Part shown: positions 4,802 to 58,139 of the stretch, in pieces
How positions within the stretch are numbered: the stretch's first letter is position 1
Layout: every line of letters begins with the position of its first letter
Source: Bryobacterales bacterium
GTDB lineage: Bacteria; Acidobacteriota; Terriglobia; Bryobacterales; UBA6623
Direction of reading: 5' to 3'
NCBI GenBank assembly: GCA_965208945.1
Contig: OZ242366.1
Coordinates: forward strand, 2,195,827 to 2,259,826
Length of the DNA stretch: 64,000 bases
Notes under the pieces: model-generated
What the model was told of the DNA's origin: nothing
What the model saw: only the letters and a program-made list of their open reading frames with translations
Databases searched by the model: none
Translations under genes and position numbers: made by a program

Positions 4802-4978
4802 CCTGCATTTCTCACCACCCGACGGACGAAGCACGCCATATGACCGCCAGGACTTCGTTGCGCTTGCTTGCCGTGCTCAACGTACGGTTCAAGTACGCCT
4901 GCGCGCGCCAAGCGGCTCGCGCCTCGTCCTGACGGCCCTCTCACGCACTTCGCCTCGCCACGTGGTGAGAAATGCAGG
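4802..4978 (-). mobile_element. MITE copy A (short subfamily, the only reverse-oriented copy)
   Basis: 17-bp TIRs cctgcatttctcaccac / gtggtgagaaatgcagg, with CTAG on both flanks (4798-4801 and 4979-4982). The interior is the reverse complement of the other copies. Confidence 0.9.
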
Positions 4979-5017
4979 CTAGTTTCCGTTAGAATCAGCG
5001 GGCTGCAGGGAGAGTCT

Positions 5018-5953
5018 GTGAAAAAGAATCTTGGGCCCCTGATCGGCTTGGCGGCGGTTTACCTGCTGTTTTGCCTGTGGGCGGGAGAGCCGTTCTACTC
5101 GAACTTCAACCGCGTCACGGTGTTGACGCAGAGCGTGATCGTGACGGCGGGCGCGCTGGGGATGACGCTGATCATCATCTCGGGCGGGATCGATTTAAGC
5201 GCCGGATCGGTGATTGCTCTGTCGACGGTGGTGATCGCGAAGCTGCTCGAAGCGGGCTGGTCTCCGCTTGCGGCGGCGGGAGCGGGAATCCTGATCGGCG
5301 GGGCGTGCGGCGCGGCGAACGGCTTGCTGATCACGCGCTTGAAACTGGTCCCGTTCATCATCACCCTGGGAACGTTGTTGGTGTTTCGAGGGACGGCGAC
5401 GGGGTTGGCGGACGAGCAGAAGATCGACGCGCCGATCACTTGGCTGAACACGATGTTGGCGAAGTTTCCCGAACCGGCCTGGCTGATCGTGGCGCCGGGA
5501 GTCTGGGCGACGCTGCTGCTTGCCGTCGTCGTGGCTCTGCTGCTGAGGAACACCGTGCTGGGACGGCATATCTTCGCGATCGGCTCGAATGAGAACACTG
5601 CGCGGCTGTGCGGGATTCGCGTGGAACGTGTGAAGTTGGCGCTGTACTCGCTGGCCGGGACGTTGATCGGTTTCGCGGGGTTGATGCAGTTCAGCCGGCT
5701 GACCGTAGGCGATCCAACAGCGGCGAAGGGGATGGAACTGGACATCATCGCTGCGGTCGTGATCGGCGGCGGAAGCTTGAGCGGCGGCGAGGGGAGCGTG
5801 ACGGGGTCGGTTGCGGGGGCGATGTTGATGGCGGTCATCCGCAACGGGCTGAGCATGAAGGGCGTTCCGAACTGGGTCCAGGATGTGTTGACGGGGTCGA
5901 TCATCGTGGCGGCGGTAACGATGGACCGGCTGCGGCATCGGTCCGGAGGATAG
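5018..5953 (+). CDS. ABC transporter permease, ribose/sugar (RbsC-like) type
   Basis: GTG start after gcagggagag. Multi-TM protein with blocks typical of RbsC-type permeases (GGIDLSAGS, IFAIGSNENTARLCGI). The upstream part of the ORF-track ORF (4868-5017) is MITE sequence. Confidence 0.85.
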   Translation: MKKNLGPLIGLAAVYLLFCLWAGEPFYSNFNRVTVLTQSVIVTAGALGMTLIIISGGIDLSAGSVIALSTVVIAKLLEAGWSPLAAAGAGILIGGACGAANGLLITRLKLVPFIITLGTLLVFRGTATGLADEQKIDAPITWLNTMLAKFPEPAWLIVAPGVWATLLLAVVVALLLRNTVLGRHIFAIGSNENTARLCGIRVERVKLALYSLAGTLIGFAGLMQFSRLTVGDPTAAKGMELDIIAAVVIGGGSLSGGEGSVTGSVAGAMLMAVIRNGLSMKGVPNWVQDVLTGSIIVAAVTMDRLRHRSGG

Positions 5954-6107
5954 GAATCGTAGGGTCCGTCGGATGGGCGGACGCGCGTCTGCAGGGGCTC
6001 GCGAGCCTCTCGTCTCACCCTGGCTCCCGACACGACGTTTCCCTCTTGCTGAAATCGCGGCATACTGAACATATCGCTTCTTTGGGGTTCTGGCCCCGGT
6101 TGTTTCC

Positions 6108-7118
6108 ATGGACGGCTGGCGTTCTCAGATCTTTATTGTCTTTTTGCTGATGACGGTCGTCCTCGCGGCGGGGACACTGGGCTTTCAGGCTGTGGAAGGC
6201 TGGTCGTTGTTTGACAGCTTCTATATGACGCTGGTCACTCTGACGACAGTCGGCTACGAAGAGATACACCCCTTGTCATTTCGCGGCCGCGTTTTTGCCT
6301 CGGTTCTGATGCTGGCCGGGGTGACTACGATCTTGGCGTCCATCACGATTTTGGGCGATATGATGCTGAAGCTCGAGTTGGGAGACGCCTTCGGGCGCCG
6401 GCGGAGGAGGATCATGCTCAAGAAGCTCTCCGATCACTACATTGTTTGCGGGGCGGGTCGGGTCGGCCGGAGCGTCGTGCGAGAGCTGAAGCGAAACGAA
6501 GCCGACGTGCTGCTCATCGAGTCGGATCCGGAGCGCGCGAAGTGGGGCGCGGATCAGGATGTGCCGACGCTGGTTGCGGATGCCACGCAGGACTCGACGT
6601 TGCGGACCGCTCAAATCGAGACGGCGAACGGACTCGTTGCCGCTGTGGACTCCGACGCGCAGAACGTGTACGTGACGCTGTCGGCCAGGGTGCTGAACCC
6701 GAACCTGTTGATCGCGTCGCGAGCAAGCAGTCGGGATGCGGCGGATCGGCTGCGGCGGGCGGGAGCGAATACGGTGTTCACGCCCTATGCGTTCATCGGA
6801 CATCGGCTGGCGCAATCGATGCTGCGGCCTCATGCGCTGAGCTTGCTCGATGTTGCGTCCGCGTTCGGGAACTCGACCGATCTGGACATCGAGGCTGAAG
6901 AGGTACGGGTTTCCGAATCGAGTCGCATGGTTTCCCTGACGCTCGATGAGTCGCGCATCAAGTCGGATCTGGGGGTGATCGTGCTGGCCGCCAGGAAGCC
7001 GGGCGGAGAGATGCAATTCAATCCCGCTGGAGATACGCGGATCGAAGCCGGCGGCGTGTTCATCGTGATGGGCGAGCGGTCGAACTTGAAGAAACTGGAA
7101 GAGATTCTGGAGAGCTGA
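6108..7118 (+). CDS. 2-TM K+ channel-like protein with RCK/TrkA-N domain (MthK-like), atypical filter TVGYEE
   Basis: Pore helix plus filter reads FYMTLVTLTTVGYEE. Rossmann motif IVCGAGRVG. C-terminal TrkA-C-like region. Confidence 0.85.
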   Translation: MDGWRSQIFIVFLLMTVVLAAGTLGFQAVEGWSLFDSFYMTLVTLTTVGYEEIHPLSFRGRVFASVLMLAGVTTILASITILGDMMLKLELGDAFGRRRRRIMLKKLSDHYIVCGAGRVGRSVVRELKRNEADVLLIESDPERAKWGADQDVPTLVADATQDSTLRTAQIETANGLVAAVDSDAQNVYVTLSARVLNPNLLIASRASSRDAADRLRRAGANTVFTPYAFIGHRLAQSMLRPHALSLLDVASAFGNSTDLDIEAEEVRVSESSRMVSLTLDESRIKSDLGVIVLAARKPGGEMQFNPAGDTRIEAGGVFIVMGERSNLKKLEEILES

Positions 7119-7119
7119 G

Positions 7120-8685
7120 TTGCAGCGCATATTGACGGCAGCGCAGATGCGGGAAGCGGACCGCGTCACGATTGAGGAGCGGGGCGTGCCGGGGCTGGTG
7201 CTCATGGAGAACGCCGGAGGCCGCTTGTACGAGCTGCTGGTGCGGTGTTTTTCTCCGTTGAGCGAGCAACACGTCGTCGTGCTTTGCGGCAAGGGCAACA
7301 ACGGCGGAGACGGCTTTGTGGTGGCGCGTCAAATTGCAACGCGGGTCGGCGCGGGGCGTTTGGAGGTTGTGCTGCTGGTGAACCCGGCGGAGTTGAAAGG
7401 AGACGCTGCGGCGAACTATCGGGCTCTCCGAGGGGTGGGCGTCGAGCCGAGGGTTGCGCCGGATGCCGCTGCTTGGCGCGAGATTCTACCTCGCCTCACG
7501 CCGGCTACGCTTGTGATCGATGCATTGCTGGGAACGGGGCTGCGCGGGCCGGCGAAAAGTCTCTTCGCGGAAGTCATCGCCGACGTCAACAGTGGCTTTC
7601 CGCACGCGAAGGTCGTGGCGGTGGACATCCCGTCGGGTATGCCTTCGGACACGGGTGAGCCTGTCGGGCCGGCTATGCGCGCCGACCACACGGTGACCTT
7701 TACGGCGCCGAAAGTAAGCCAGGTGTTTCCGCCGAATTGCGAGCGCATGGGCGATCTTGCCGTGGTCCCGATCGGGACGGCGAACGCGGTGCTCGATGCT
7801 TTGGAGGGTCCGTTGCTGGCGCTCGTCGAGGCGTCGGACGTTGGCGCTCTGTTCGTGCCGCGCGAGAAGTCTGCCCACAAGGGCAGCTATGGGCATGTGC
7901 TCGTGATCGGTGGGTCGAAGCCGAAGCCGGGAGCGGCGATGATGGCGGGAACGGCGGCTTTGCGAGCGGGAGCCGGCCTGGTGACCGTAGCGACGGCGGC
8001 GAGCGCAGCGCCGGCGATCGTTAGCGATAGGCCGGAGTTGATGACGCTGCCGGTCGCGGAGTTGGAAGACGGTTCGATGGGCGAGTCGGCGTTCAGAGAG
8101 AGTTGGCTTGAGGGAAAGACGGTCGCCGCTATCGGACCGGGGCTGGGGACGAGCGAGGAGAACCGCAGGCTGGTGGGCCGTGTCGTTCGCGAGGCGAATA
8201 TGCCGCTTGTCGTGGATGCGGATGGGCTCACGGCTCTGGCGGGCATCGTGGACTGGCGGGCGGCGAGTGGATTGGTCGTGTTGACGCCGCATCCAGGTGA
8301 GATGGCGAGGCTGACGGGGCTTACCAGCGCCGAAGTGCAGGGAAGGCGTGTTGAGGTGGCGCGATTGCTGGCCACCCAAAAGAAGGTCCACGTGGTGTTG
8401 AAAGGCTTTCGGACTCTGGTTGCTTCGCCCGACGGCGGTGTACTGGTGAATCCGACGGGCACGCCGGCGCTGGCCAAAGGGGGCTCGGGGGACGTGCTCA
8501 CGGGGATGGTTGCCGGTTTGCTTGCGCAATTCCCGGTGCAGCGGCCGGAGGTGGTGATCGCGGCAGCGGTGTATCTGCATGGGCTGGCGGCTGAGTTGGC
8601 GGTCGAAGAGGGCGGCGAGCAGACCTTGGCCGCAACGGATCTGTTGGACTACTTGCCGCGGGCGATTCGACGGGTAAGCTCCTGA
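7120..8685 (+). CDS. nnr: Bifunctional NAD(P)H-hydrate repair enzyme (epimerase + ADP-dependent dehydratase)
   Basis: 521 aa. YjeF N-terminal block (GKGNNGGDGFVVAR) and C-terminal carbohydrate-kinase block (GHVLVIGGS, KGGSGDVLTG). Confidence 0.9.
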   Translation: MQRILTAAQMREADRVTIEERGVPGLVLMENAGGRLYELLVRCFSPLSEQHVVVLCGKGNNGGDGFVVARQIATRVGAGRLEVVLLVNPAELKGDAAANYRALRGVGVEPRVAPDAAAWREILPRLTPATLVIDALLGTGLRGPAKSLFAEVIADVNSGFPHAKVVAVDIPSGMPSDTGEPVGPAMRADHTVTFTAPKVSQVFPPNCERMGDLAVVPIGTANAVLDALEGPLLALVEASDVGALFVPREKSAHKGSYGHVLVIGGSKPKPGAAMMAGTAALRAGAGLVTVATAASAAPAIVSDRPELMTLPVAELEDGSMGESAFRESWLEGKTVAAIGPGLGTSEENRRLVGRVVREANMPLVVDADGLTALAGIVDWRAASGLVVLTPHPGEMARLTGLTSAEVQGRRVEVARLLATQKKVHVVLKGFRTLVASPDGGVLVNPTGTPALAKGGSGDVLTGMVAGLLAQFPVQRPEVVIAAAVYLHGLAAELAVEEGGEQTLAATDLLDYLPRAIRRVSS

Positions 8686-9119: not shown

Positions 9120-10668
9120 GGTTGTAGCGAAAGACGAACTGGAGGCTGATGTTCTCTCCTCGGAAGTCGGTCGGTAGAGGAGGCAGCGGGTTGGAGGCGC
9201 TGATGCCGGCGACGGCGGCGCGGTCGAGAGAACCGATCCCTGATGAGTTGGCGATGACGAGCTTTGCAATCGTGCCGTTGGGCACGATGCGGAGTTGGAT
9301 GGCGACGGCGCCGCGGTTCATGCCGCGGCGGGCGCTCTCCGGAATCACGGCGAACCAGTTCCGCCGCACGGTTGAAAGCACCTGCAACAGGTAGGGGCGG
9401 AAGTCGACGCCCATCGGGTCGCTGAGCAGCTCGAGGTTGCTGCCGGCGTTGCCGGGTGAGGGGGGAAGGTAGCCGCTGAGTCCGCCGGCCCCGAAATCGT
9501 CTCCGACTGCCTGTCTGGCCCCGCGGCCACTTCTGAGATTGCCGATGGCGCCCTGCACGATTTGACCAGGGCGGGCATTGAAGGCGAGGCTGCCGAGCTG
9601 GGCCGGCCCGGCTCGGCCCGGAGAACCGGTACGGGCTTCTTCCAACGTGAGCTTGGGCCGCTGGTTCGATCGAGAGGGCCGCTTCGGCATCGGCAGCTCG
9701 GATGGGCGGCCGAGGCGGCGGTCCGGATGAAACTCGCCGGGGAAGGGACTGCGGGCTGCGATGAGTGGTGGAGCGGGCTCGGGCTCGGGCTCGCGTTGCT
9801 CCGGCGGAGGCTCAGGCTCGGTTTCTTCGGGTTGTTCGGCCTGGGCTGGAGCGGGCTCGGATTCCTCTTCGGGTTCGGGTTGCGGGTTGGGCGGCGCCGG
9901 AACGATCTCTTCCGGGCGCTCCATCACCGGCACGGGAAGCTCGTCCTTGCCTTCGAGCTCGACGCTGACTGGCCCTTCGTTGGGTTCGGGCTGCGTCAGT
10001 TCCAGCAGGAAGTCCTCCGGAGGCGAGAGGAGGGTGAAATTCGGGGCTTCGACGTCCAGGGGCCGCTGCTCGAGGGGCAACATGGTTGGCTGCAGAAGCA
10101 GGGATGCGACCAGGAAAGCGTGGACGACGAGCGAAAGCGCCATCGGCTTTCGTTTCCCCGCCAGCGAAAGACTCTCGTCCCAGTGGACCTCGAGGACGAG
10201 TTCGGGCTCGTCTTCAGGAACTGCCGTCCCGGGCGAACCGGCCTCCGTCTCGGATGCTTCGGGAGCAGCTTCGGTCTCATGAGGCGCAGCTTCCCCTTCC
10301 TCCGGCGTGCTATCCGCGCGGTCGTTCGGAAGGCCTTCAGCGGGCGCTTCATTCAGCGCCAAAGGGGTTCCGCGAGCCGGCTGGTAGTCCTCGATGAGGA
10401 GGTGCAGGGCGGGTTGATCGTCGCTTGGTAGCGCCGGTGCGCGGGAGGGAGCCGCTTGGTGAAAGTCTCTCCACCAATCGTCGCGGTGACGGGAGTATTC
10501 CTGAATCAGCAGGCGGAGATGGCGCGCGGGCGCGCCGTTCGTTGCCCTTCTTGCAGGCTCTTGATCGGACCGGGGTAGTGATGCAAATCGAGTCAGCCAC
10601 TGCCGGGCTCGCAAGCCGTAGTCTTCGAGCAGTAGCCGTAGATCCGGTTCCGTCTCCGGTCGACTCAC
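9109..10668 (-). CDS. TonB-family C-terminal domain protein, Pro/Glu-rich linker
   Basis: 519 aa. One central TM (LSLVVHAFLVASLLL), a PEPE-rich spacer and a TonB_C-like end. GTGA overlap with the upstream gene's stop. Confidence 0.75.
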   Translation of the reverse strand: MSRPETEPDLRLLLEDYGLRARQWLTRFASLPRSDQEPARRATNGAPARHLRLLIQEYSRHRDDWWRDFHQAAPSRAPALPSDDQPALHLLIEDYQPARGTPLALNEAPAEGLPNDRADSTPEEGEAAPHETEAAPEASETEAGSPGTAVPEDEPELVLEVHWDESLSLAGKRKPMALSLVVHAFLVASLLLQPTMLPLEQRPLDVEAPNFTLLSPPEDFLLELTQPEPNEGPVSVELEGKDELPVPVMERPEEIVPAPPNPQPEPEEESEPAPAQAEQPEETEPEPPPEQREPEPEPAPPLIAARSPFPGEFHPDRRLGRPSELPMPKRPSRSNQRPKLTLEEARTGSPGRAGPAQLGSLAFNARPGQIVQGAIGNLRSGRGARQAVGDDFGAGGLSGYLPPSPGNAGSNLELLSDPMGVDFRPYLLQVLSTVRRNWFAVIPESARRGMNRGAVAIQLRIVPNGTIAKLVIANSSGIGSLDRAAVAGISASNPLPPLPTDFRGENISLQFVFRYNLKR

Positions 10669-11642
10669 GTGTCGGGCGTCGCCATTGTGGCCGCGACAAC
10701 GCGGGAATGGCGCTCCATTTCCTCTATTATTCTAAGCCCCGCTTCAAGTACCGCCCGGCCGTCCTTGCCGCTGATCCGTGGGCGCTTGCGGGTGGCGATG
10801 CAATCGAGGAACGCTTCGGCCTGGCGAGCCAGAGGCTCGCCCTTCTCGGCTTCGAGCTTGCGGTATGTCAACTGAAAAGCCGCATCGACTCCGGAGAGGT
10901 AACCGTCTTGCCGTGTGTAATCGATCGATACGTACTGACGGGGTTGGAAGAAGCGCAGTTTCCGAATCTTCTCGGTAGAGACGCGGCTGGCTGTGAGATT
11001 CGCTACACAACCGTTTGCAAAGATCAATCGGACACTGGCGATGTCGGCTTTCGAAGAAAGGACCGGGATGCCGGTTGCTTCGAAGCGGTCGAGCGGGCTG
11101 TCGACCAGGTCGAGAACGATATCGAGGTCGTGGATCATCAGGTCGAGCACCACGTCGACATCGAGGCTGCGCGGCGAAAAGATGCTCATCCGGTGGATCT
11201 CGAAGAAGAGCGGCAGGTTGGCGACGTCTCTTATGACCTCAACGATCGGATTGAATCTCTCGAGGTGGCCGATCTGGAGGATACGTCCGTTCTCTTCGGC
11301 TGCGTGGATCAACCGATCAGCGGACTCGAGATCCGGTGCGATCGGCTTTTCGACAAGCAGGTCGATTCCGGTGTTGAGGAGCTCGACGCCGACTTGGGCA
11401 TGGTGCTGTGTGGGAACAGCGACGACGGCTGCCTGGACACGGCCCGCGAGTTCGGCGGCGTTCCCGAGAGCCTCGCAATCGTATTCGCGGGCGATGGTTC
11501 GGGCGCGGTCGAGATCGTGGTCGACGACGGCGACGAGATGGGCGGCGGGCAGGTTGCTCAGCACGCGGGCGTGCTGCTTTCCAAACGTGCCGACACCTAC
11601 GACGGCGACTCGGGTTGGGTCGGTGGCGGGGCTTTGCTGCAT
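10665..11642 (-). CDS. Gfo/Idh/MocA family oxidoreductase in the lipid A cluster (possibly GnnA-like)
   Basis: 325 aa. N-terminal Rossmann VAVVGVGTFGKQHA and EKP motif (LLVEKPIA). Lies downstream of lpxI in the same direction. Confidence 0.85.
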   Translation of the reverse strand: MQQSPATDPTRVAVVGVGTFGKQHARVLSNLPAAHLVAVVDHDLDRARTIAREYDCEALGNAAELAGRVQAAVVAVPTQHHAQVGVELLNTGIDLLVEKPIAPDLESADRLIHAAEENGRILQIGHLERFNPIVEVIRDVANLPLFFEIHRMSIFSPRSLDVDVVLDLMIHDLDIVLDLVDSPLDRFEATGIPVLSSKADIASVRLIFANGCVANLTASRVSTEKIRKLRFFQPRQYVSIDYTRQDGYLSGVDAAFQLTYRKLEAEKGEPLARQAEAFLDCIATRKRPRISGKDGRAVLEAGLRIIEEMERHSRVVAATMATPDT

Positions 11643-11681: not shown

Positions 11682-11797
11682 CCTGCATTTCTCGCCCGGT
11701 GGTGAGGCGAAGTGCGTGAGAGGGCCGCCAGGCAAGCGCAACGAAGTCATGGCGGTCGTATCGCGTGCTTCACCCGTCAGGTGGTGAGAAATGCCGG
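11682..11797 (+). mobile_element. MITE copy B1 (internally deleted, 116 bp)
   Basis: Both TIR-like ends are present and the central hairpin region is missing. Shares the CTAG at 11798-11801 with B2. Confidence 0.85.
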
Positions 11798-11801
11798 CTA
11801 G

Positions 11802-11978
11802 CCTGCATTTCTCATCACGCGGCGAGGCGAAGTGGGTGAGAGGGCCGTCAGGACGAGGCGCGCGCCGCTTGGCGCGCGCAAGCGTACTTGAACAGTACGT
11901 TGAGCACGGCAAGCAAGCGCAACGAAGTCCTGGTGGTCGTATCGCGTGCTTCGACCGTCGGGTGATGAGAAATGCAGG
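11802..11978 (+). mobile_element. MITE copy B2 (short subfamily)
   Basis: Full-length copy. The right flank CTAA (11979-11982) contains the lpxI stop codon (TAG on the minus strand). Confidence 0.9.
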
Positions 11979-12779: not shown

Positions 12780-13552
12780 TTGATGACGCCCCGTTTGGAC
12801 GAGGTGATGAAATCGAGCAATTGTTGGAGCGTCTCGTCCATCTCTTCTTCGCCACGGATCTTCTCGAGAGCCTGATCGGTGTTCAGATTTGACTTGGTCA
12901 GTCGCCGCAAGGCCTTGTGAAGCCGCTGAATGGACTCCTTGGAGAAGCCGCGGCGTTCCAGTCCGACCTTGTTGACCCCGAAGACTCGCGCGCTGCGGTC
13001 GGAGACGACCAGAGAGAACGGCATGACGTCTTGCGTGATGACGCTGTAGCCACCGATATAGCAATGCGCGCCGACGCGGCAGAACTGATGGACGCCGCTG
13101 TGGGCGCCGACGACGGCCCAGTCTTCGACGGTGACGTGTCCACCGAGCGTGGCGCTGTGGGCGAGGATGGTGTGGGAGCCTACATGGCAATCGTGGGCGA
13201 CGTGCGCGTAGGCCTGAAGCAGGTTGTCGTCGCCGAGCGAGGTGGTCCCGCCGCCGCCCTCTGTTCCGCGATGGATGGTGACGAATTCCCGGACGAGATT
13301 GCGGTGACCGATCTGTGTTTCGGTTCTCTCGCCGTGATACTTGAGGTCTTGTGGAGCGATGCCGACGGTGGAATAGGGCGAGAAGGTGTTGTCCTCGCCG
13401 ATGGTGATGGGGCCTTCAACGTAGACGTGGGCAAGGAGCCTGGTGCGGGCCCCGATTTCGACGTCAGGGCCGATGACGCAGAACGGGCCGATGTCCGCCG
13501 TTTCGTGGACGCGCGAGGCCGGATCGACGACTGCCGTTGGGTGTACCGCCAT
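12776..13552 (-). CDS. lpxA: Acyl-ACP--UDP-N-acetylglucosamine O-acyltransferase
   Basis: 258 aa. Hexapeptide-repeat left-handed beta-helix sequence with a typical LpxA C-terminal helical region. Confidence 0.92.
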   Translation of the reverse strand: MAVHPTAVVDPASRVHETADIGPFCVIGPDVEIGARTRLLAHVYVEGPITIGEDNTFSPYSTVGIAPQDLKYHGERTETQIGHRNLVREFVTIHRGTEGGGGTTSLGDDNLLQAYAHVAHDCHVGSHTILAHSATLGGHVTVEDWAVVGAHSGVHQFCRVGAHCYIGGYSVITQDVMPFSLVVSDRSARVFGVNKVGLERRGFSKESIQRLHKALRRLTKSNLNTDQALEKIRGEEEMDETLQQLLDFITSSKRGVIK

Positions 13553-20198: not shown

Positions 20199-20373
20199 CC
20201 TGCTTTTCTCACCACGCGGCGAGGTGAAGTGCGTGAGAGGGCCGTCAGGACGAGGCGAGCCGCTTGGCGCGCGCAGGCGTACTTGAACAGTACGTTGAGC
20301 ACGGCAAGCAAGCGTAACGAAGTCCTGGCGGTCGTATCGCGTGCTTCGACCGTCAGGTGGTGAGAAATGCAGG
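20199..20373 (+). mobile_element. MITE copy C (short subfamily)
   Basis: TIRs present (the left one slightly degenerate, cctgcttttctcaccac). Flanks are CTGG and CTAG. Confidence 0.88.
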
Positions 20374-20579
20374 CTAGTCCCGCCCCCGCCCCGCTACGCG
20401 GTGCGGATCATTCGAGCAAGAAACATCCGGATCGGCGTCATGGCTGCTTGATTCGGACGATGTTTCAGGTCAGCGTTTCATTTCTTTTCTCTGAGAAACT
20501 GACAACGCCCGCAGGGGCTCTCGGCCCCAACCACTCACGCAAGCCGCCGATGTTCTATGATGTCCGTCGAAGATTCTGC

Positions 20580-23265: not shown

Positions 23266-23285
23266 CGGCGAGCGCCGGTCGCTAG

Positions 23286-24386: not shown

Positions 24387-24420
24387 CCTGCATTTCTCAC
24401 CACGTCGTTACACAGGCAGG
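24387..24420. mobile_element. Mini-MITE F (34 bp)
   Basis: Sequence cctgcatttctcaccacgtcgttacacaggcagg flanked by TTAG and CTAA. The right flank holds the stop codon of the 24421-24912 gene. Confidence 0.7.
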
Positions 24421-44704: not shown

Positions 44705-44803
44705 CCTGAAACATCCTCCTGATCAAGGGGCAGCGGACACCCATCCGGATGTTTCCGGATTGAATGATCCACAGACGAGCGGAGGAAAAACTGGCATAGC
44801 AGG
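44705..44803. mobile_element. X-family small element X2 (99 bp)
   Basis: Begins cctgaaacatcctcctgatcaag immediately after the TGA stop of the BNR gene. Ends ggcatagcagg. Separated from MITE M by cgag. Confidence 0.65.
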
Positions 44804-44807: not shown

Positions 44808-44984
44808 CCTGCATGTCTCACCACGCGGCTAGGTGAAGTGCGTGAGAGGGTCGTTAGGACGAGGCGAGCGCCGCTTGGCGCGCACAGGCGTACTTGAACA
44901 GTACGTCGAGCACGGCGAGCAAGCACAACAAAGTGATGGCGGTCGTATCGCGTGCTTCGGCCGTCGGAAGCTGAGAAATGCAGG
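44808..44984 (+). mobile_element. MITE copy M (short subfamily)
   Basis: The right flank CTAA (44985-44988) contains the stop codon (TAG on the minus strand) of the aldo/keto reductase gene. Confidence 0.88.
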
Positions 44985-45950
44985 CTAACTGCCCTGATAC
45001 TCGTGTCTGCGCCGGCCTTCGAGCGCCGTGCGCGCGTCGCGCTTCCAGTCTTCCAGGTCGGGGCCGGCAAGCTCTGCGGCTCTCCCGCGCAGCTCGGCCA
45101 TCACATCCCTGTTGTACTGCGAGAACTGCTGCGCGATGCGGACATCGTCTTCGATCTGACCGATCGTCGTGCATCCGACCGCGAGGCAATGGATCGGAAG
45201 GCTCAGCACGTAGTTGATGCATTGCCCGACCCCGAATGACTGGAGCAGCTTCGAGTTGGCCGTGCTCTTCATGCCCTGGATGCCCAGGTTCTGCTTTTGG
45301 GCTTCCGGCAGCACCTTCTGTTCGAAGCTCAAATACGACGGATCGGCTGGATTGAGCGGCATCAGGATCGTGTCGAAGTCCTTGTAAAGCCGCAGCATCT
45401 CGAGATGGGCTTCCGGATCGTGATGCCCGGTAAAACCGATGTAGCGGCATTTGCCCGCTTTCTTTGCCGCCTCGAAAGCTTCGATCGCACCGCCGGGAGC
45501 GAAGATGGCTTTGAGGTCCTCATCTGACTTGACGGAGTGAATCTGCCACAGATCGAGATAGTCGGTCTTGAGTCTCTTCAGCGACTTGTGTAGTTCTTCC
45601 TCGGCTTCCTTGCGGGTTCGCTTCACGCTCTTCGTGGTCAGGAAGACCTCCTTGCGGACATCCTCGAGCGCTTCGCCGTAGACCACCTCGGAGCGGCCGT
45701 TCCAGTAGCTGTGTGCATTGTCGAAGTAGTTGAGCCCGAGTTCATAGGAGCGGCGCGTGATGGCCTTGGCCTGATCGAACGTGCAAAGCGGAAAACGCCC
45801 ACCGGCTTGTCCGACGAGCGTGAGTTTCTCGCCGGTCTTGCCGAACGTCCTTTTCGGTACGTCACCGGCTTTCAGGCGGCTCGCCCGGGTACTGCCCGCC
45901 GCGATGCTCAACCCCGCAACAGCACTGCCGAAGAAGCTGCGTCGTTTCAT
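44985..45950 (-). CDS. Aldo/keto reductase, Tat-type signal
   Basis: Starts MKRRSFFGSAVAGLSIAAG. AKR blocks (YFDNAHSY, GFTGHH). Confidence 0.88.
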   Translation of the reverse strand: MKRRSFFGSAVAGLSIAAGSTRASRLKAGDVPKRTFGKTGEKLTLVGQAGGRFPLCTFDQAKAITRRSYELGLNYFDNAHSYWNGRSEVVYGEALEDVRKEVFLTTKSVKRTRKEAEEELHKSLKRLKTDYLDLWQIHSVKSDEDLKAIFAPGGAIEAFEAAKKAGKCRYIGFTGHHDPEAHLEMLRLYKDFDTILMPLNPADPSYLSFEQKVLPEAQKQNLGIQGMKSTANSKLLQSFGVGQCINYVLSLPIHCLAVGCTTIGQIEDDVRIAQQFSQYNRDVMAELRGRAAELAGPDLEDWKRDARTALEGRRRHEYQGS

Positions 45951-46199
45951 GGTTTCCTCCCGGAGTCGACAAATAGCCGCCCCAATCATAACACCTGTCT
46001 CGGTCGTGTTGTGCCGTCAAGCACGGTGTTTCGGTCAGGAACGAGATCCACCGGGACCAAGCCCTGCACAACTGGCGCCGTGGTCTTGTTCGTAGCGGGC
46101 GTGCTGCCGCCGGAAGCAGTGTAGCCCTTCCACGGGATGCCGGCCGTACCCTGAACGGAACGTTTGCGCCGTCGTCGTTGTAGAGAACGGCAGCAGAGC

Positions 46200-50533: not shown

Positions 50534-51016
50534 TTGTCATACCTCGAGTGGCTTGAGAACTCACTGACGGACAAGCTCGAAGAGCAGCCGGTCGGAGAGC
50601 CTGTCGCCCTTCGCGCCTACCTGGAGCTGAGCGACGATCACGGGCACCTGGTTCCGACCGCCGGGGCGATGGCGGCTGTCGCAGGCGCTTGGTTCGGTGC
50701 GGGATTGCCCAAGGTCTATGCTCTCGGCGGAGCCGACCAGGGATACGTTTCGGTCACCGCGACGTATCCTGGCGGACAGACCGCTCTGATCGTCGCCGAG
50801 TCCTTGAGCGCAGCCGCCGGTGAGCGGCCCTCCGTGCGTCTCTTGCTGATCGGCAACCATGGCACGATGGAGTTCGCTGATTCGCCGGGTGCGGATTTCC
50901 GCACGGTCGATCGAACGCCGCCTGCCGGCGCGAGCAGCGAGGCTCTGAGCCGGGCGATAGCTGAGTCGCTCCGGTCCAGCGCCCCCGTGGAAGGGAGCAC
51001 GCACAGCCGTGGCTAG
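50534..51016 (+). CDS. Hypothetical protein (resembles a Gfo/Idh/MocA C-terminal-type domain)
   Basis: 160-aa ORF with a TTG start. Its stop TAG lies inside the left CTAG flank of MITE N. Start and function are uncertain. Confidence 0.45.
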   Translation: MSYLEWLENSLTDKLEEQPVGEPVALRAYLELSDDHGHLVPTAGAMAAVAGAWFGAGLPKVYALGGADQGYVSVTATYPGGQTALIVAESLSAAAGERPSVRLLLIGNHGTMEFADSPGADFRTVDRTPPAGASSEALSRAIAESLRSSAPVEGSTHSRG

Positions 51017-51192
51017 CCTGCATATCTCCCCGCGTGGGGACGTGAAGTGCGTGAGAGGGCCGTCAGGACGAGGCGCGCGCCGCTTGGCGCGCGCAGGCGT
51101 ACTTGATCGTACATCGAGTACGGCAAGCAAGCGCAACAAAGTTATGGCGGCCGTATCGCGTGCTTCGGGTGTCAGGCGGTGAGATATGCAGG
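51017..51192 (+). mobile_element. MITE copy N (short subfamily, variant centre gtacttgatcgtacatcgag)
   Basis: Flanks are CTAG and CTAA. The ATG in the right TIR (51186) opens the downstream ORF. Confidence 0.88.
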
Positions 51193-52340
51193 CTAAACCT
51201 TCGTTCGGCGTTCTGCTCGTAACGGGCGGGATGACCCACCAGGAGAACTACGGAGAGGGATTCCTCGCCGACCCGCGCGCAAGAGTCGTCGGCCTTACCG
51301 ATGAACCCGATGTCGACGAACGCCGCGACCGCCTGAACCGCGGATTGGCCGATCAGTTCGGCATCCCCTTCCTGCCGGATATCCGCGAGGCGCTCGCGCG
51401 GTCCGATGTGCACCTCGTCTCCGTCTGCTCGGAGTTCGAGCGGCGCACCCGCGTCTCTCAAATCTGTGCGGAAGCCGGCAAGCATCTCTACGTCGACAAG
51501 CCCATGGTGACGAAGATGGCGGAGGCCGACAAACTCGTGGCGACAGCCGGGCGGCGTGGTTTGCGCGGGCAGATGTTCACTCAGGTCGGCGCGCCGTACG
51601 CGAGGCGGCTGAAAGGAATCGTCGATTCCGGTGCTTTGGGCGAGATCAAGTCGATCCAGTGTGACCTCATGTTCGCGAAGGGTTTCACCGGCGGCGCTCC
51701 GCTTGGCGTGCCGCGGCGCGAGCACGATCCGCCCAGGCGGTTCACGTTCCCGGACGCCAAGCGTGAGATCTGGACGACCGCGGTCTATTCGCTCACCTTG
51801 ATCCGCTGGCTCCTCGGCGGACCCCGCTTTCGTAGCGTCTACGCCACGAGCGCCAACTACTTTTTCGAGGAGCACTACAAACGCGATGTCGAGGACTTCG
51901 GCACGCTTGCTCTCACGCTCGACAACGGCGTCACGGCGTCGCTGATCGCCGGCCGGATCGGTTGGCACAGTCACCGCAGTTCCGGCCCGAACTTCACGCG
52001 CATCATCGGTAGCAAGCGCAGCTTCCTTCTTGACGCGCACAGCCCGCGCTTCGAAATCTCGTCCGACCGAAAGTGGGCGCCGCCGGCGAAGGACCCCATC
52101 GATCCCATGGGCTTCTGGTCGAGCACCATGGAGCGTGGGAACGCTCAACCCAAGCCCTTTTGGCATGAGCCGCCGACCGCGCCCGGGCAATCGGATCAGG
52201 CTCTCTTCCTCGATTGCCTCGAACAGGACAAAGAGCCGGAAGTCACGCTGGACGATGCCGCGCAGGCATCCGAGGCCATGCTGGCCGCCTACCGGTCCGC
52301 TGCGACAGGGCAGGTGGTGGCGTTGCCTCTGCCGCGCTAG
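51186..52340 (+). CDS. Gfo/Idh/MocA family oxidoreductase
   Basis: 384 aa. Rossmann beta1 plus Gly-rich loop FGVLLVTGG begins at codon 7. The only in-frame start after the upstream TGA (51179-51181) is the ATG inside the MITE N terminus. The stop TAG lies in the CTAG flank of MITE K. Confidence 0.8.
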   Translation: MQAKPSFGVLLVTGGMTHQENYGEGFLADPRARVVGLTDEPDVDERRDRLNRGLADQFGIPFLPDIREALARSDVHLVSVCSEFERRTRVSQICAEAGKHLYVDKPMVTKMAEADKLVATAGRRGLRGQMFTQVGAPYARRLKGIVDSGALGEIKSIQCDLMFAKGFTGGAPLGVPRREHDPPRRFTFPDAKREIWTTAVYSLTLIRWLLGGPRFRSVYATSANYFFEEHYKRDVEDFGTLALTLDNGVTASLIAGRIGWHSHRSSGPNFTRIIGSKRSFLLDAHSPRFEISSDRKWAPPAKDPIDPMGFWSSTMERGNAQPKPFWHEPPTAPGQSDQALFLDCLEQDKEPEVTLDDAAQASEAMLAAYRSAATGQVVALPLPR

Positions 52341-52396
52341 CCTGCATTTTTCACGACGTGGCGAGGCGAAGTGGGTGAGAGGGCCGTCAGGACTAG

Positions 52397-54120
52397 CCCG
52401 GAAATCTCACCAGGGGGTAGGAAAAGGGCTGCCTGGTGTGGCATAAAACATTTATGTCCAAAACGTTAGCGCCACAAGCCGAAAGCAGCCCTCTGTCAAC
52501 AGAGTGTATCCAATCCAGCTTCACCTTTGCCAAGCATTTTCGACGCCAGGTGAGCGCTCGCTTTGACGGCGGGGTGATCAGTTCCGACGGCGGCGCGCTG
52601 CTGTTACGGGAGGTGGACCAGCGCATCAACCTGCTGCCGCGCTTGGCGGGCTGCTTCGAGGATGGCCGCGATTCGCGGCGCATCGAACACCTGGTGGGGG
52701 AGTTGGTCTCGCAGCGGGTCTACGGGCTGGCGCTGGGATACGAAGACCTCAACGATCACGACGAGTTGCGGCGCGATCCGGTGCTGGCGCTGCTGGCGGG
52801 CAAGAGCGACGTGTCCGGGCAGCGCCGCCGCCGCGAGCGTGACCGCGGCCAGCCGCTGGCGGGCAAGAGCACGTTGCAGCGACTGGAACGAACGACCGAT
52901 GGCGTGGATCGTTACCAGAAGGTCCGCTGCGTCAGCGAAGCGATCGACCGCCTGTTGGTGGACGTGTTCGTGGAAGCGCACTCGCAGGAGCCGGCCGAGG
53001 TCCTACTCGATATCGACGCCACCGACACGCCTTTGCACGGGCAGCAGGAGGGACGTTTCTTTCACGGCTACTACAGACACTACTGCTACTTGCCGCTGTA
53101 CATCTTCAGCGGCGAGCACGTGTTGTGCGCGCGGCAGCGGGTATCGAATCAAGACGCGGCGGCGGGCAGCGTAGCGGAGTTGGAGAGGATCGTGGCGCAG
53201 CTCCGGGCCGCGTGGCCGGAGGTGAAGATCATCCTGCGTGGGGACTCGGGGTTTTGTCGGGACGAGTTGCTGAGTTGGTGCGAAGAGAACCGGGTGGACT
53301 ATGTGGTGGGGCTGGCGCGCAACGAGCGGCTGCAGTCGTTGATCGAGGAGGCGCTCGAAGAGGCGGCCAGCAGGCAGCAGCAAACGGGCCGGCCGGCGCG
53401 GGCCTACAGCGAGTTCGAGTATCGGACGCTTGAGAGTTGGAGCCGGGAGCGGCGGGTGGTGGCGAAAGCCGAACAGTTGGTGGGCAAGCAGAACCCGCGC
53501 TACGTGGTGACGTCGCTGGACGGGGAGCGCTGGCCGCCGCGGCGGTTGTATGAACAACTCTACTGCGGGCGCGGGGAGGCGGAGAATCGCATCAAGGAGC
53601 AGTTGAGTCTGTTCGCGGATCGCATGAGTACGGAGACGCTACGGGCCAATCAGTTGCGGCTGCATCTGTCGTCGCTGGCGTATGTGTTGCTGGTGGGACT
53701 GCGGCGGCTGGGGCTGAAGGGCACGCAGTGGGCGCGGGCGCAGACCGAGACGATCCGGCGGGGGCTGTTGAAGATCGGCGCGCTGGTGAAGGTGAGCGTG
53801 CGGCGGGTGCATCTGTCGCTGGCCAGCGGCTACCCCGATGAGGAGGCGTTCGCGGCGGTGTATCGGGCGCTGCGTCCGCCGGGACCAGCAACTGTTTGAC
53901 AACAGTGAGCGAACCGAAAAACGGGGCCGTCGGCAGCCTCAGGGGCGAAGTGTTTCTCAAATCGGCCACAACCCGAAAAACGAACATTCGCGAGCCGCTA
54001 AGGGCAGCGCAAAACGCCCCGTAGAGGCCTTCACTCACCCTCGCCGCGAAGAATACCGTGTTTCAGACCCTATTTCGGCCTCCCTCAACCCATCGCGAAG
54101 CCGCTGGTGAGAAATGCAGG
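52397..54120 (+). mobile_element. IS1380-family insertion sequence (1724 bp), probable autonomous partner of the MITE
   Basis: Bounded by CTAG direct repeats (52393-52396 and 54121-54124). IRL is cccggaaatctcaccagg and IRR is gctggtgagaaatgcagg. IRR matches the MITE TIR at 16 of 17 positions. Confidence 0.85.
52436..53899 (+). CDS. IS1380 family DDE transposase
   Basis: 487 aa. N-terminal FDGGVISSDGGALLLREVD and the blocks LDIDATDTPLHGQQEGRFFHGYY and RGDSGFCR are typical of this family, identified from memory. Confidence 0.85.
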   Translation: MWHKTFMSKTLAPQAESSPLSTECIQSSFTFAKHFRRQVSARFDGGVISSDGGALLLREVDQRINLLPRLAGCFEDGRDSRRIEHLVGELVSQRVYGLALGYEDLNDHDELRRDPVLALLAGKSDVSGQRRRRERDRGQPLAGKSTLQRLERTTDGVDRYQKVRCVSEAIDRLLVDVFVEAHSQEPAEVLLDIDATDTPLHGQQEGRFFHGYYRHYCYLPLYIFSGEHVLCARQRVSNQDAAAGSVAELERIVAQLRAAWPEVKIILRGDSGFCRDELLSWCEENRVDYVVGLARNERLQSLIEEALEEAASRQQQTGRPARAYSEFEYRTLESWSRERRVVAKAEQLVGKQNPRYVVTSLDGERWPPRRLYEQLYCGRGEAENRIKEQLSLFADRMSTETLRANQLRLHLSSLAYVLLVGLRRLGLKGTQWARAQTETIRRGLLKIGALVKVSVRRVHLSLASGYPDEEAFAAVYRALRPPGPATV

Positions 54121-54281
54121 CTAGGCGCAAGCCGGGCGAAGGAAAAAGGCGCGAGCCGCTTGGCGCGCGCAGGCGTACTTATGGGATGGTTCGCTCCCAC
54201 TTCCGCTGCGTCGTCGAGTTCGGCCATGCTGGTAGCAACGGCCGTCCCCGGCCGCAGTTCACGAACCGAGAGGAAACCATC

Positions 54282-55355
54282 ATGGCAACGACCCAGCGAT
54301 CATCCCGCAAGAGCGTATGGAAGGAGGTCGTCACGATCGGCCTCGATCTAGCAAAACACAACGTCGACTTGGTCGGCTTGGACGCAACCGGCCGGGTGCT
54401 CACCCGTCGCCGCTACTCGAAGGGCAAGCTGCTGGAGGTGACCGCCCAGATGCAGCCCTGCCGTATCGGCATGGAAGCCTGCTGCGGCGCCCATCACCTG
54501 GGCCGCCAACTGCTGGCCCAGGGGCACGACGTGAAGCTGATGCCGCCCAAATATGTGAAGCCCTTTGTGAAGCGCGACAAGAACGACTCGACGGACGCCG
54601 AGGCCTGCGCGGAAGCCTGTCTGCGGCCGAGCATGCGCTTCGTGGCGGTCAAGAGCGAGCAACAACTGTCGATGCAGTCGCTGCACCGCTATCGCTCGCG
54701 GCTGGTGGGCAACTCGACGCAGTTGATCAACCAGGCGCGCGCCTTTCTGCTGGAACGCGGCATCACCCTTCCACAGGGCAAGCGTTGGTTTGTGGTCCGT
54801 CTGCCGGAGATCCTCGAGGACGCCGATAACGGCCTGTCCGACGAAATGCGGGCGCTGCTGGCGGGCATGTTTGCCGAATGGCAAGTGCTGGCAGAGAAGA
54901 TTCAGCAAGTCAACACCTATCTGCTGAGGAAAGCGCAGGCGAGCGAGGCCTGCCGGCGGCTCAGAGAGATCCCCGGCATCGGCGTGCAGACAGCGACGGC
55001 CTTGGTGGCGACGATCGGCAACGCCGAGGCCTTCGAGAAGGGGCGCGACGTCGCTGCTTGGTTGGGTCTGGTGCCGAGAGAGTACTCCAGCGGAGGCAAG
55101 CAGCGCTTGGGAGGCATCAGCAAGCGCGGCAACCGCTACGTCCGGACGCTGCTGGTGCACTGTGCCCGCTCGAGCCTCGACGTGCTCGCGAAGCGCAGCG
55201 ACCAACTCGGCCAGTGGCTGCGGCGGATGCTCCTGAACAAAGATCGGCGGGTCGTGATCGTGGCGCTGGCGGCACGGCTGGCGCGCATCGCATGGGCCTT
55301 GCTGAGCAGCGGCCAGCGCTTCTCTCAACAGCGGCAACCAGCCCCGGCGGGTTAA
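54282..55355 (+). CDS. IS110 family DEDD transposase/recombinase
   Basis: 357 aa. Blocks IGLDLAK, GMEAC, KNDSTDAEA, and C-terminal GISKRGNRYVR. Confidence 0.9.
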   Translation: MATTQRSSRKSVWKEVVTIGLDLAKHNVDLVGLDATGRVLTRRRYSKGKLLEVTAQMQPCRIGMEACCGAHHLGRQLLAQGHDVKLMPPKYVKPFVKRDKNDSTDAEACAEACLRPSMRFVAVKSEQQLSMQSLHRYRSRLVGNSTQLINQARAFLLERGITLPQGKRWFVVRLPEILEDADNGLSDEMRALLAGMFAEWQVLAEKIQQVNTYLLRKAQASEACRRLREIPGIGVQTATALVATIGNAEAFEKGRDVAAWLGLVPREYSSGGKQRLGGISKRGNRYVRTLLVHCARSSLDVLAKRSDQLGQWLRRMLLNKDRRVVIVALAARLARIAWALLSSGQRFSQQRQPAPAG

Positions 55356-55618
55356 CCGCCCTGCGGTCCGCCGTAGCACTACCAGGAGCTCACAGTTTGT
55401 CTGCTTACTCCCGATTGATGGACAAAACGGTCGTACCGGCGTCACCGAATCCTGTTACTGTTCATGGCCCTCACAGGTCGGCGTACTTATGAGGAGCGGG
55501 ACGTGCGGACCCCATCATGGCCCGGAACCAGCGCGGTTCCACCTAGAGGTCGGATATATTGGCGCAGACCAACGTTCAGCAAGAAGGAATAGGTGGACAT
55601 CCCGGGAGCGAACCATAT
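55356..55618 (+). ncRNA. Candidate guide (bridge/seek-type) RNA region in the IS110-family right end
   Basis: Contains tactgttca (55456-55464), the reverse complement of the right target flank tgaacagta. Also contains ggcgtactt (55480-55488), identical to the left target flank. A hairpin ggaacc-agcgc-ggttcc is present. No fold model could be run. Confidence 0.4.
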
Positions 55619-55864
55619 ATTGAACAGTACGTTGAGCACGGCAAGCAAGCGCAACGAAGTCCTGGCGGTCGTATCGCGTGCTTAGACCGCCGGGTGGCGA
55701 GAAATGTAGGCTAGTCGCTCCCGGAACGGTTCCCTGCCATCCCGCGCGCCAAGAGCGCCGGGCGATCGCTTGACGTAGGTGAGCCCTGAGCCGCTATCGA
55801 AGATCAGAGCGGTGTGATAACCTGACAGCAGCTCGACCCGCATACTCATTTGGGAGGAACGAAC

Positions 55865-56752: not shown

Positions 56753-56804
56753 GGCTCGGGTGCGACAAGTCACTTTGGTCTCCGGCGCAGCGTCCGCCGT
56801 TCAG

Positions 56805-57533
56805 ATGTCGTCACTCCCCAGTCTGCTTTCCTCGAAGGACATTGCTCCGTCCGAGCGGCTGATTTTCGCCCTGGACGTCCCGACGACCGACGAGGCCCGC
56901 CGGCTTGTCAGGCGCCTCGGCGATGCTGTCCGCTTCTACAAGCTGGGCCTGGAACTCTCCATGGCCGGCGGTTACTTCGAGTTGGTCGATGACCTGCTCG
57001 CTCAAGACAAGAAGGTCTTCGTTGACCTCAAGTTCTTTGACGTTCCCCAGACGGTTCAACGAGCCGTCGCGCGCCTCGACGGACGCGGGATTTCCTTCAC
57101 GACCGTGCACGGCAACGAGAACATCCTGGAAGCGGCATGTTCCGCGAAAGGAGACGTGAAGGTCCTCGCCGTGACCGTGCTGACGAGTCTCGACGAGGGA
57201 GACTTGCGCGACCTGGGATTCCAGTGCAGTCCCAAGGAACTCGTTCTATCGCGCGCTAAACGCGCTATCGCTGTCGGCTGTGACGGCGTTGTCTCGTCGG
57301 GACTCGAAGCGCCGGAGCTGCGGCGCGGGCTGGGCGAGAACTTCCTGGTCGTTACCCCCGGCATCCGCCCGGTGGCCAACGTCGACGACCAGAAGCGGAC
57401 GGTCAACGTCGAGCAGGCTTTTCACAACGGCGCTGACTACATCGTCGTCGGACGGCCGATCAAAGAAGCGCCCGATCCCCGCGAAGCTGCGGAGGCGATC
57501 CAGCAAACGATCTCGGACGTCTTCAGCGGATAA
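56805..57533 (+). CDS. pyrF: Orotidine 5'-phosphate decarboxylase
   Basis: Starts MSSLPSLL. Blocks FALDV and FVDLKFFDVPQT. Confidence 0.9.
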   Translation: MSSLPSLLSSKDIAPSERLIFALDVPTTDEARRLVRRLGDAVRFYKLGLELSMAGGYFELVDDLLAQDKKVFVDLKFFDVPQTVQRAVARLDGRGISFTTVHGNENILEAACSAKGDVKVLAVTVLTSLDEGDLRDLGFQCSPKELVLSRAKRAIAVGCDGVVSSGLEAPELRRGLGENFLVVTPGIRPVANVDDQKRTVNVEQAFHNGADYIVVGRPIKEAPDPREAAEAIQQTISDVFSG

Positions 57534-58101
57534 GGCGGCCTTGGTCCGGCACATCACCGCCGCTGAGGGGGAACTCCTCGATCTTGTGGTACACCGCCCC
57601 GCTCGGCCGCAACTCACTGGTGAAGAGCACGAAGCGATCCACGATCTGCAAGCCGAACTCACGGCCGTGCTCGTCGATGGCCCGCTGCAACTTCGCCGGC
57701 CGGATTCTGCCTTTCACCCGGCCCAGGGTCACATGGGGCCGGTAAGCCCGCCGCTCCCGTTCGATCCCCAACGGAGCCAACGCCTCGTCGACCTTCGCGG
57801 CGAGTCGCGGCAAGTCGTCGACGTGCCGCAGTCCGGCCAGGAAGACCCGAGGGGAGCGCAGATTCGGCAAGACGCCCAATCCGGTGACGGTGAAGCGAAT
57901 CGTACCGGACCTCAACCGGCGAAGCGCCTCGACCACTTCATCGCAACGCCTCTCGGGCCACTCGCCGATGAACTTCAGGGTCAGGTGCTGGTTCTCCTGC
58001 CTCACCCACCGCATGGGCAGTCCGGGCGGCATGGCATCGATGGCCTCCTGCAGAGCTTGCCGGCAGCCTTCGTCCAGTTCGATCGCCGCAAACAAACGCA
58101 T
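57523..58101 (-). CDS. thpR: RNA 2',3'-cyclic phosphodiesterase (2H family)
   Basis: 192 aa. Two HxTxx motifs (HLTLKF and HVTLGR). Confidence 0.85.
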   Translation of the reverse strand: MRLFAAIELDEGCRQALQEAIDAMPPGLPMRWVRQENQHLTLKFIGEWPERRCDEVVEALRRLRSGTIRFTVTGLGVLPNLRSPRVFLAGLRHVDDLPRLAAKVDEALAPLGIERERRAYRPHVTLGRVKGRIRPAKLQRAIDEHGREFGLQIVDRFVLFTSELRPSGAVYHKIEEFPLSGGDVPDQGRLIR

Positions 58102-58105
58102 CTAG

Positions 58106-58139
58106 CCTGCATTTCTCACCACGTGGCGAGACATGCAGG
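58106..58139. mobile_element. Mini-MITE O (34 bp)
   Basis: Sequence cctgcatttctcaccacgtggcgagacatgcagg with CTAG on both flanks. It abuts the thpR start codon. Confidence 0.75.

Follow-up and report, generated by a model that had tools for sequence, protein, structure and literature searches.

A 64-kb window (64,000 nt) of contig OZ242366.1 from a Bryobacterales bacterium carries many copies of a short palindromic repeat, which is a genuine and recently mobile family of transposable elements of the miniature inverted-repeat type (MITEs). It is very probable that these repeats form a non-autonomous family that duplicates a YTAR target tetramer and is most likely moved by the transposase of an IS1380-family insertion sequence (IS) located in the same window (Table 1). 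The family is a new and typical member of an already known class of elements and does not found a class of its own. In the proposed mechanism the MITE would insert into YTAR, mostly CTAG, with duplication of this tetramer, and the DDE transposase of the co-resident IS1380-family IS would move it in trans.

The 17-nt terminus CCTGCATTTCTCACCAC was found 30 times in the window with at most two mismatches, compared to no occurrence in 100 dinucleotide-preserving shuffles. A profile built from eight copies retrieved, at unchanged coordinates, all elements that had been listed in an earlier, sequence-only reading of this DNA. About 16 elements or remnants were counted, and the copies have a length of 116–201 bp. 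In total, 2849 bp at 14 insertion sites derive from the MITE, which corresponds to 4.5% of the window or one insertion per about 4.6 kb. The earlier estimate of roughly one copy per 3.5 kb was about right. Copies, termini and flanks were described correctly in that reading, apart from four corrections. Element K, regarded as one large copy, is actually a 201-bp copy split by two ISs. Copy H is indeed an element, but its left terminus is degenerate and it belongs to a third size variant (about 187 bp). The sequences named L and B1 are present, L being a composite fragment and B1 an internally deleted copy. The two 34-bp minis mentioned there were also located.

The flanking sequences were surveyed for 78 pairs of terminal inverted repeats (TIRs) from the window and from other genomes, among the matches listed. 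The flanks are overwhelmingly YTAR, and the TIRs and 4-bp flanks reported for the window are kept in these pairs. Identical 4-bp flanks occur in 32 of the 78 pairs, including 19 CTAG/CTAG, 9 TTAG/TTAG and 2 TTAA/TTAA. Where both flanks are YTAR (41 pairs), they have the same first base in 36 cases and the same fourth base in 35, so that the two flanks co-vary. Because TTAG is not palindromic, the TTAG/TTAG identity does not arise from longer inverted repeats and represents a true direct duplication, of which the TTAG...TTAG noticed earlier at copy D is an example. Decayed flanks were mainly CTGG or CCAG. Nested insertions follow the same rule: E2 within E1 and the IS1380-family IS within K are inserted at the same internal CTAG, which was duplicated in each case and is uninterrupted in copies D and I. 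The target is rare in this DNA. The window contains 35 CTAG tetramers versus 217 expected from base composition (six-fold depletion), and the remaining YTAR tetramers show a 5- to 12-fold depletion. Fifteen of the 35 CTAGs flank elements, 8 lie inside elements and 12 are free; of the CTAG sites usable in the window, roughly every second one is occupied.

Comparison with relatives revealed both empty and filled sites. Two syntenic relatives were retrieved via a dipeptidase gene, namely L095 with about 96% and L096 with about 95% identity, and a third locus, L058 (APA_bin_29), is syntenic to window positions 57559–63999 with 91–96% identity. L095 and L096 both lack copies D, E and G1 precisely and have exactly one TTAG, GTAG and CTAG, respectively, at these sites. 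L095 shares copies G2, H and I with the window, whereas they are absent from L096, which contains no copy over 18.5 kb. In the opposite direction, L058 carries a 177-bp copy (7159–7335) with CTAG duplication where the window reads CTAC. The copies are thus not fixed at orthologous positions; fixation in distant relatives had been named in the sequence-only reading as a pointer to a structural REP-like (repetitive extragenic palindromic) element. Both refuting conditions set in that reading, loss of consistent TIRs or 4-bp flanks elsewhere and fixation of the copies, were thus examined, and each outcome speaks for a MITE. Both 34-bp minis are conserved in relatives and are therefore old remnants. 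In place of G2, H and I, L096 shows GCAA, GCGCG and CTGAG (window-oriented positions 9711–9714, 11240–11244 and 13426–13430), of which GCGCG can alternatively be aligned as 4-nt CGCG. In the window and in L095 these three copies are flanked by YTAR-like tetramers, and the short sequences in L096 may be either excision footprints or the result of later loss of the target.

The copies fall into size classes of 176–177 bp, about 187 bp and 201 bp, so that the two classes of about 177 and 201 bp and the extra module proposed earlier are real. The 201-bp class differs from the 177-bp class by an additional module of 24 nt in the left arm, with AGGCGC direct repeats at its bounds. Between orthologues this module varies in both directions (copies G2 and I, Table 1), a pattern that would fit repeated deletions by slippage which shorten 201-bp copies to 177 bp. 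The H-type variant of about 187 bp contains a different right-centre module with 7-nt ACGAAnC repeats and recurs in other genomes; swaps of the centre module are present in further variants as well. An alignment of 40 full-length copies from several genomes showed 94% per-column identity, with at least 90% conservation in each column of the 17-bp TIRs. As already stated in the sequence-only reading there is no consistent open reading frame (ORF), since 1–2-nt indels among the copies disrupt every frame.

The candidate partner is a 1724-bp IS inside copy K. Its only ORF encodes a 481-aa transposase matching PF13701 (E = 7e-147, 490 bits, cut-off 34.7) and NF033539 ‘IS1380 family transposase’ (384 bits, cut-off 180). 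Members of the IS1380 family have a length of about 1.55–2.0 kb, a single ORF, imperfect TIRs starting with CC and a target duplication of 4–5 bp, and the nested IS agrees with the family in length, ORF, TIRs and duplication. Its left and right inverted repeats are identical at 13 of 17 positions, and CTAG is duplicated at its flanks. At the right end, 16 of 17 positions are those of the MITE terminus. In a relative, a 5.6-Mb contig harbours three identical transposase genes, 95% identical to the gene in the window. For two of them the element measures 1723 bp and has CTAG at either border; the third also ends next to CTAG, but its left end was located only tentatively. Because of the three identical copies, this IS is considered recently active. 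Furthermore, plasmid pKF715A of Pseudomonas putida carries a 57%-identical IS1380-family IS whose two ends read CCCGCATTTCTCACAG and whose flanks are CTAG. The core CCYGCATTTCTCAC is therefore common to the MITE and two transposase-bearing members of the family, those of the window and of pKF715A. According to this, terminus core and target are traits of the clade, which also explains the terminus matches in other phyla described below. The MITE resembles the family (IS1380, IS1247, ISEcp1) in termini that start with CC, in the CTAG target and in a 4-bp duplication, which lies within the 4–5 bp of the family. For comparison, IS1247 measures 1672 bp with IR 16/13 and DR 5 (PMC3281130). The consensus had not been recognised as a named family in the earlier reading; it indeed matches nothing in Rfam, its termini and target however match this IS1380-family clade.

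MITE and IS thus share ends and target, and from these sequence features mobilisation of the MITE in trans by the IS1380-family transposase is most likely; derivation by deletion is not claimed. Several observations weigh against this reading. The left end of the IS matches the MITE terminus at only 12 of 17 positions. Beyond the 17-bp terminus, the interior of the MITE has no significant similarity to either IS end (z ≤ 0.9), so that the MITE did not arise from this IS by deletion in a simple way. Among the at least 88 terminus loci listed from an exact-terminus scan of one genome per species, a transposase of the IS1380 type is present in only one (L001). Long ORFs that leave the element lie in the frame of the ATG carried by the terminus (see below) less often than in the other open frame (21 versus 34 of 246). 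Finally, the copies are coherent in orientation, whereas simple DDE transposition would not lead one to predict this for a palindromic target. A subterminal match between IS and MITE that had been spotted by eye was not significant. The MITE is also unlike the IS1380-family ISs in that it has no transposase, is ten times shorter, carries two right-end-like termini and has an unrelated interior.

The coherence in orientation extends over long distances. Thirteen of the 14 window copies have one orientation, and adjacent copies in 8-kb loci of other genomes agree 23:1 among the matches listed. On OZ241991.1 (loci L002–L088), the orientation switches at least 10 times, and blocks of the same orientation are between 60 kb and more than 700 kb long. 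The insertions specific to the lineage (D, E1, E2 and G1) all have the orientation of their region. We know of no strand-specific process that sets orientation for DDE elements of the IS1380 type. A strand-specific step, i.e. fork-coupled transposition of folded single-stranded DNA, flipping in situ or ectopic conversion between neighbours, might nevertheless set the orientation regionally; we consider this unlikely, although it would account for the orientation counts. One strand of the element folds far better than the other, and some flank pairs are complementary rather than identical (CTGA...TCAG), both of which would suit such a step. So would the situation at site C, where L095 (window-oriented 5624–5799) holds the closest relative of the window copy (98%) in opposite orientation, with the same left boundary and CTGG flank. 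The right flanks of this site differ, as about 95 bp of D7-like sequence follow the window copy and are missing from L095 and L096. Site C points to a flip in situ, a re-insertion or a conversion. On the other hand, orientation is correlated neither with the coding strand (25:23) nor with GC skew over 8 kb (23:22), the switches on a single chromosome do not fit a pattern of two replichores, and an ordinary double-strand DDE pathway fits the TIRs and duplications. No usable skewed motif resembling FtsK orienting polar sequences (KOPS) could be derived from the 64 kb.

If not by the IS1380-family enzyme, a real MITE could be moved by another YTAR-duplicating transposase, for example of the IS5 group, and its likeness to IS1380 would then be coincidental or limited to the target. 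Duplication of a 4-bp YTAR target is also a hallmark of the IS5 group, and IS5 and IS1380 transposases both fall under the broad PF01609 DDE_Tnp_1 domain. The unrelated interior of the MITE is in line with this explanation, as is the fact that most MITE loci among the matches listed have no IS1380-type transposase within 8 kb. We judge it very improbable, since the 16/17 terminus match involves an IS1380-family IS in the same window and the same core with CTAG flanks is found on the distant Pseudomonas IS. The termini of IS5 are unrelated to the MITE, no IS5-type transposase lies beside the examined elements, and none of the eight Pfam-screened window ORFs, which include the two transposases in K and leave about 40 others unscreened, matches an IS5-family transposase.

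The folding of the repeat bears on another explanation. As expected from the palindromic interior noted earlier, the consensus forms one long imperfect hairpin, with a predicted free energy of −118.6 kcal/mol for RNA (z = −11.7) and −66.2 kcal/mol for DNA (z = −9.1). When this hairpin is imposed on the 40 copies, 95.8% of cells are paired. Changes on both sides of a pair affect 13 pairs (27 cells); shuffles gave 3.1 pairs (4.7 cells), and the slid controls did not exceed 10 pairs (14 cells). This excess is modest, and relatedness of the copies or arm-to-arm correction could also yield it. The canonical strand folds better than its complement by about 26 kcal/mol as RNA or 13 kcal/mol as DNA, with 8 versus 1 G.U pairs. 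Such a very stable, strand-asymmetric hairpin, the double-sided changes beyond those of the controls and the strictly intergenic placement would all be expected of REP/REPIN-like or other host-maintained palindromes, which would spread through mRNA stabilisation, processing or termination rather than transposition. REPs and BIMEs, as well as REPINs with their RAYT, are likewise abundant intergenic palindromes. We find this explanation scarcely credible here, because TIRs, 4-bp duplications, nested insertions and precise empty sites are transposon hallmarks which REP elements lack. In addition, orientation is independent of the direction of neighbouring transcription, neither intrinsic-terminator nor sigma-70-like promoter signals are consistently present within the copies, and a scan of the window at the Rfam gathering threshold matched no family, as the sequence-only reading had proposed to check. 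Membership in the REP/REPIN group was rejected because of the TIRs and target duplications. Palindrome-associated transposable elements (PATEs) derived from IS200/IS605, which have no TIRs and no duplication, insert 3′ of a specific tetra- or pentanucleotide and carry subterminal hairpins, are ruled out by the TIRs and the 4-bp duplications on both sides.

Returning to a MITE mobilised by the IS1380-family transposase, its position relative to genes was analysed. All copies in the window are intergenic or located at gene boundaries. YTAR is strongly depleted and is found mainly at gene boundaries, so that insertions land at the ends and starts of genes; the mechanism would accordingly start from a tetramer that is scarce in a genome of 63% G+C. 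YTAR holds a stop codon on each strand, and its duplication thus regenerates stops. Indeed, the duplicated tetramer provides the stop codon of the genes listed in Table 1 next to copies D, M, N and K. In this way the duplication would restore the stop of the upstream gene, while the terminus would supply the downstream gene with a ribosome-binding-like site and an in-frame ATG.

For the starts of genes, the terminus reads outward GGTGAGAA-ATG-CAG-G, and insertion into ATG/GTG-GCT-AR yields an in-frame M-Q-A-... sequence. The right terminus of copy N contributes the ATG of gene 51186–52340, whose product begins with MQAKPSFGVLLV, whereas the orthologues begin with MAKPPFGVLLV or MASRPFGVLLV; an orphaned GTGG is found on the opposite side of this copy. 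Similarly, the L058 orthologue of gene 58205 begins with MQASDRHRL versus MATDRHRL at the empty site of the window. Both replacements of start codons are verified at the sequence level, and the donated start sites are probably used. An orphaned [AGT]TGG precedes the target in 8 of 156 flanks, and four of these eight have a long ORF starting from the ATG of the opposite terminus. The outward ATG was rejected as a general feature, frame 0 being no richer than frame 1. As the ATG frame is not enriched, start donation appears to be occasional and tolerated and not a designed function. Through restoration of stops and starts, insertions would be tolerated and accumulate to high density; each of the two effects is documented at single insertions.

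The second IS within copy K interrupts the central hairpin loop of the MITE. Its transposase matches PF01548 and PF02371 as well as NF033542 ‘IS110 family RNA-guided transposase’ (335 bits). The insertion point lies between GCGTACTT and GAACAGTAC, and the identical junction is found in three independent MITE copies, namely K in the window, L092 1272–4450 (OZ241991.1) and L101 at about 1790–1988 (metagenome). The 3′ non-coding end of the IS contains, at 55456 and 55480, the 9-mer TACTGTTCA, which is complementary to the right flank of the target, and the 9-mer GGCGTACTT, which equals the left flank; their starts are 24 nt apart. Relatives that share the left end of this IS are inserted elsewhere, into unrelated sequences with CT or TT at their end; for those in L102 and L104 no right end could be located. 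A bridge RNA or seekRNA mechanism has been published for IS110-type elements, and REP elements are frequent targets of this family. RNA-guided IS110 elements are characterised by a DEDD transposase, a sequence-specific target that is duplicated at most in a short core, and guides complementary to the target in a non-coding end. The two 9-mers and the specific target fit a putative guide RNA of the bridge/seekRNA type; the single-sequence fold of the 3′ end was uninformative (z = +0.8), and Rfam contains no match to it. The IS110-type element would then be a natural system of interest for programmable recombinases, with a defined 18-nt target in the MITE hairpin loop (GGCGTACTT followed by GAACAGTAC). 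It seems doubtful that both hold together, i.e. that regional orientation is set by a strand-specific process acting over tens to hundreds of kilobases and that the MITE serves as RNA-guided landing pad for IS110-type elements; these two features, orientation coherence and targeting by IS110, deserve further attention most. In L092 (2466–4199, OZ241991.1) an IS1380-family IS is inserted at CTAG within the IS110-type transposase gene within a MITE, giving three levels of nesting.

Outside the window the matches listed stem mainly from metagenome-assembled genomes (MAGs) of Bryobacterales (Acidobacteriota), such as OZ241991.1, OZ244625.1, RHO3_bin_12 and APA_bin_29, and 49 full-length MITE matches were listed in other loci. 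The names of several MAGs suggest sponge-derived samples, as far as names alone can tell. The window has a G+C content of 60–65%, and its genes include those for PSCyt1/PSCyt2/PSD1 proteins. The closest homologues of window genes are mostly on contigs of 2–5 kb, which is consistent with short-read assemblies breaking at the MITE repeats. The same 17-nt terminus also heads short elements with unrelated interior in MAGs of Verrucomicrobiota (L004, L006, L036, L046, L083), Planctomycetota (L066, L076, L077, L079), Terriglobia (L020, L049) and others. Some of these have a second terminus at a distance of 100–230 bp and CTAG or TTAG flanks. This suggests that MITEs may have arisen repeatedly from the same IS1380 clade. 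No transposase was present within 2.3 kb of the single termini in Verrucomicrobiota, Planctomycetota and Terriglobia. A plasmid collection gave no DNA match to the MITE, and viral contigs gave a single terminus match only.

Correia/NEMIS elements of Neisseria, ERIC, RUP and MITEPye1 are similar to the new family in being short, non-coding and intergenic, in having TIRs and target duplications, in forming long RNA hairpins and in being present or absent among relatives. They differ in their termini, their target (YTAR in the new family, TA for Correia) and their parent family. Compared with these families the density of the Bryobacterales MITE is locally high, since insertions occur once in about 4.6 kb and occupy about every second local CTAG site. 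To our knowledge, regional coherence in orientation has not been described for any of them. Correia/NEMIS, ERIC and RUP can alter the expression of neighbouring genes. The same has been reported for MITEPye1, which is related to IS1182 (PMC11578231). No description of MITEs of the IS1380 family was found in the literature searched, which is no proof of absence. For annotation and assembly, a very abundant repeat of Bryobacterales MAGs can now be assigned a probable parentage in the IS1380 clade by its CCYGCATTTCTCAC ends and CTAG target.

Table 1 MITE copies, insertion sequences and associated features in the window (TSD, target-site duplication; positions refer to the window)
Feature	Position	Strand	Description
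Copy A	4802–4978	−	177 bp; sole reverse-oriented copy; CTAG/CTAG; nhmmer 202 bits on − strand
Copy B1	11682–11797	+	internal deletion (profile 1–51 + 109–176); joins B2 via shared CTAG 11798–11801
Copy B2	11802–11978	+	177 bp; CTAG/CTAA
Copy C	20199–20373	+	175 bp; CTGG/CTAG; site empty in L096
Copy D	22285–22485	+	201-bp class; TTAG/TTAG; single TTAG and no copy in L095 and L096
Copy E1	23286–23666	+	201-bp class; E2 nested at internal CTAG; site empty (GTAG) in L095 and L096
Copy E2	23342–23517	+	176 bp; nested in E1; CTAG/CTAG
Mini	24387–24420		34 bp: terminus and degenerate inverted terminus; orthologous site occupied in L095 and L096
Copy G1	27244–27419	+	176 bp; CTAG/CTAG; single CTAG in L095 and L096
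Copy G2	27516–27692	+	177 bp; CTAG/CTAA; L095 orthologue 201 bp with same flanks; absent from L096
Copy H	29226–29412	+	variant of ~187 bp; alternative right-centre module; also in L095, absent from L096
Copy I	31549–31749	+	201-bp class; CTAG/TCAG; L095 orthologue 177 bp; absent from L096
H-type right-end fragment	33934–33996	+	
Copy L	41338–41533	+	truncated standard copy (profile 65–175) fused to H-type right end
Copy M	44808–44984	+	177 bp, diverged; CGAG/CTAA
Copy N	51017–51192	+	176 bp; CTAG/CTAA; between two overlapping genes, 50534–51016 and 51186–52340
Copy K	52341–55710	+	201-bp-class MITE in parts 52341–52396, 54125–54180 and 55622–55710; two nested ISs
IS1380-family IS	52397–54120	+	1724 bp; ends CCCGGAAATCTCACCAG / CTGGTGAGAAATGCAGG; CTAG duplication 52393–52396, 54121–54124; transposase 52454–53899
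IS110/IS1111-like IS	54181–55621	+	1441 bp; transposase 54282–55355; in MITE central hairpin loop
Mini	58106–58139		34 bp: two termini back to back; orthologous site occupied in L058
Empty site CTAC	58209–58212		codons 2–3 of gene 58205–59257; filled in L058 by 177-bp copy with CTAG duplication
Gene	22486–23292	−	stop from D right TSD
Gene	44985–45989	−	stop from M right TSD
Gene	50534–51016		TAG stop from N left TSD
Gene	51186–52340		stop from K left TSD
Second repeat (~70 bp)	33099–33168, 34320–34389, 44723–44792, ~20390–20470 (reverse strand)		also in L095/L096 near the 24.3-kb site

Another short repeat, about 70 bp long and with a TCAAGCGG...CCGCTTGA hairpin and a AGGAAAAAC tail, often adjoins MITE copies. 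Between two direct copies of it the window contains an additional segment of 1.15 kb (33168–34319), which neither L095 nor L096 has. Between copies H and I lies a PhdYeFM/PIN toxin-antitoxin pair, located at 5152–5847 in L095 and syntenic with about 30.5–31.5 kb of the window; at this locus of L096 the antitoxin gene alone was called.

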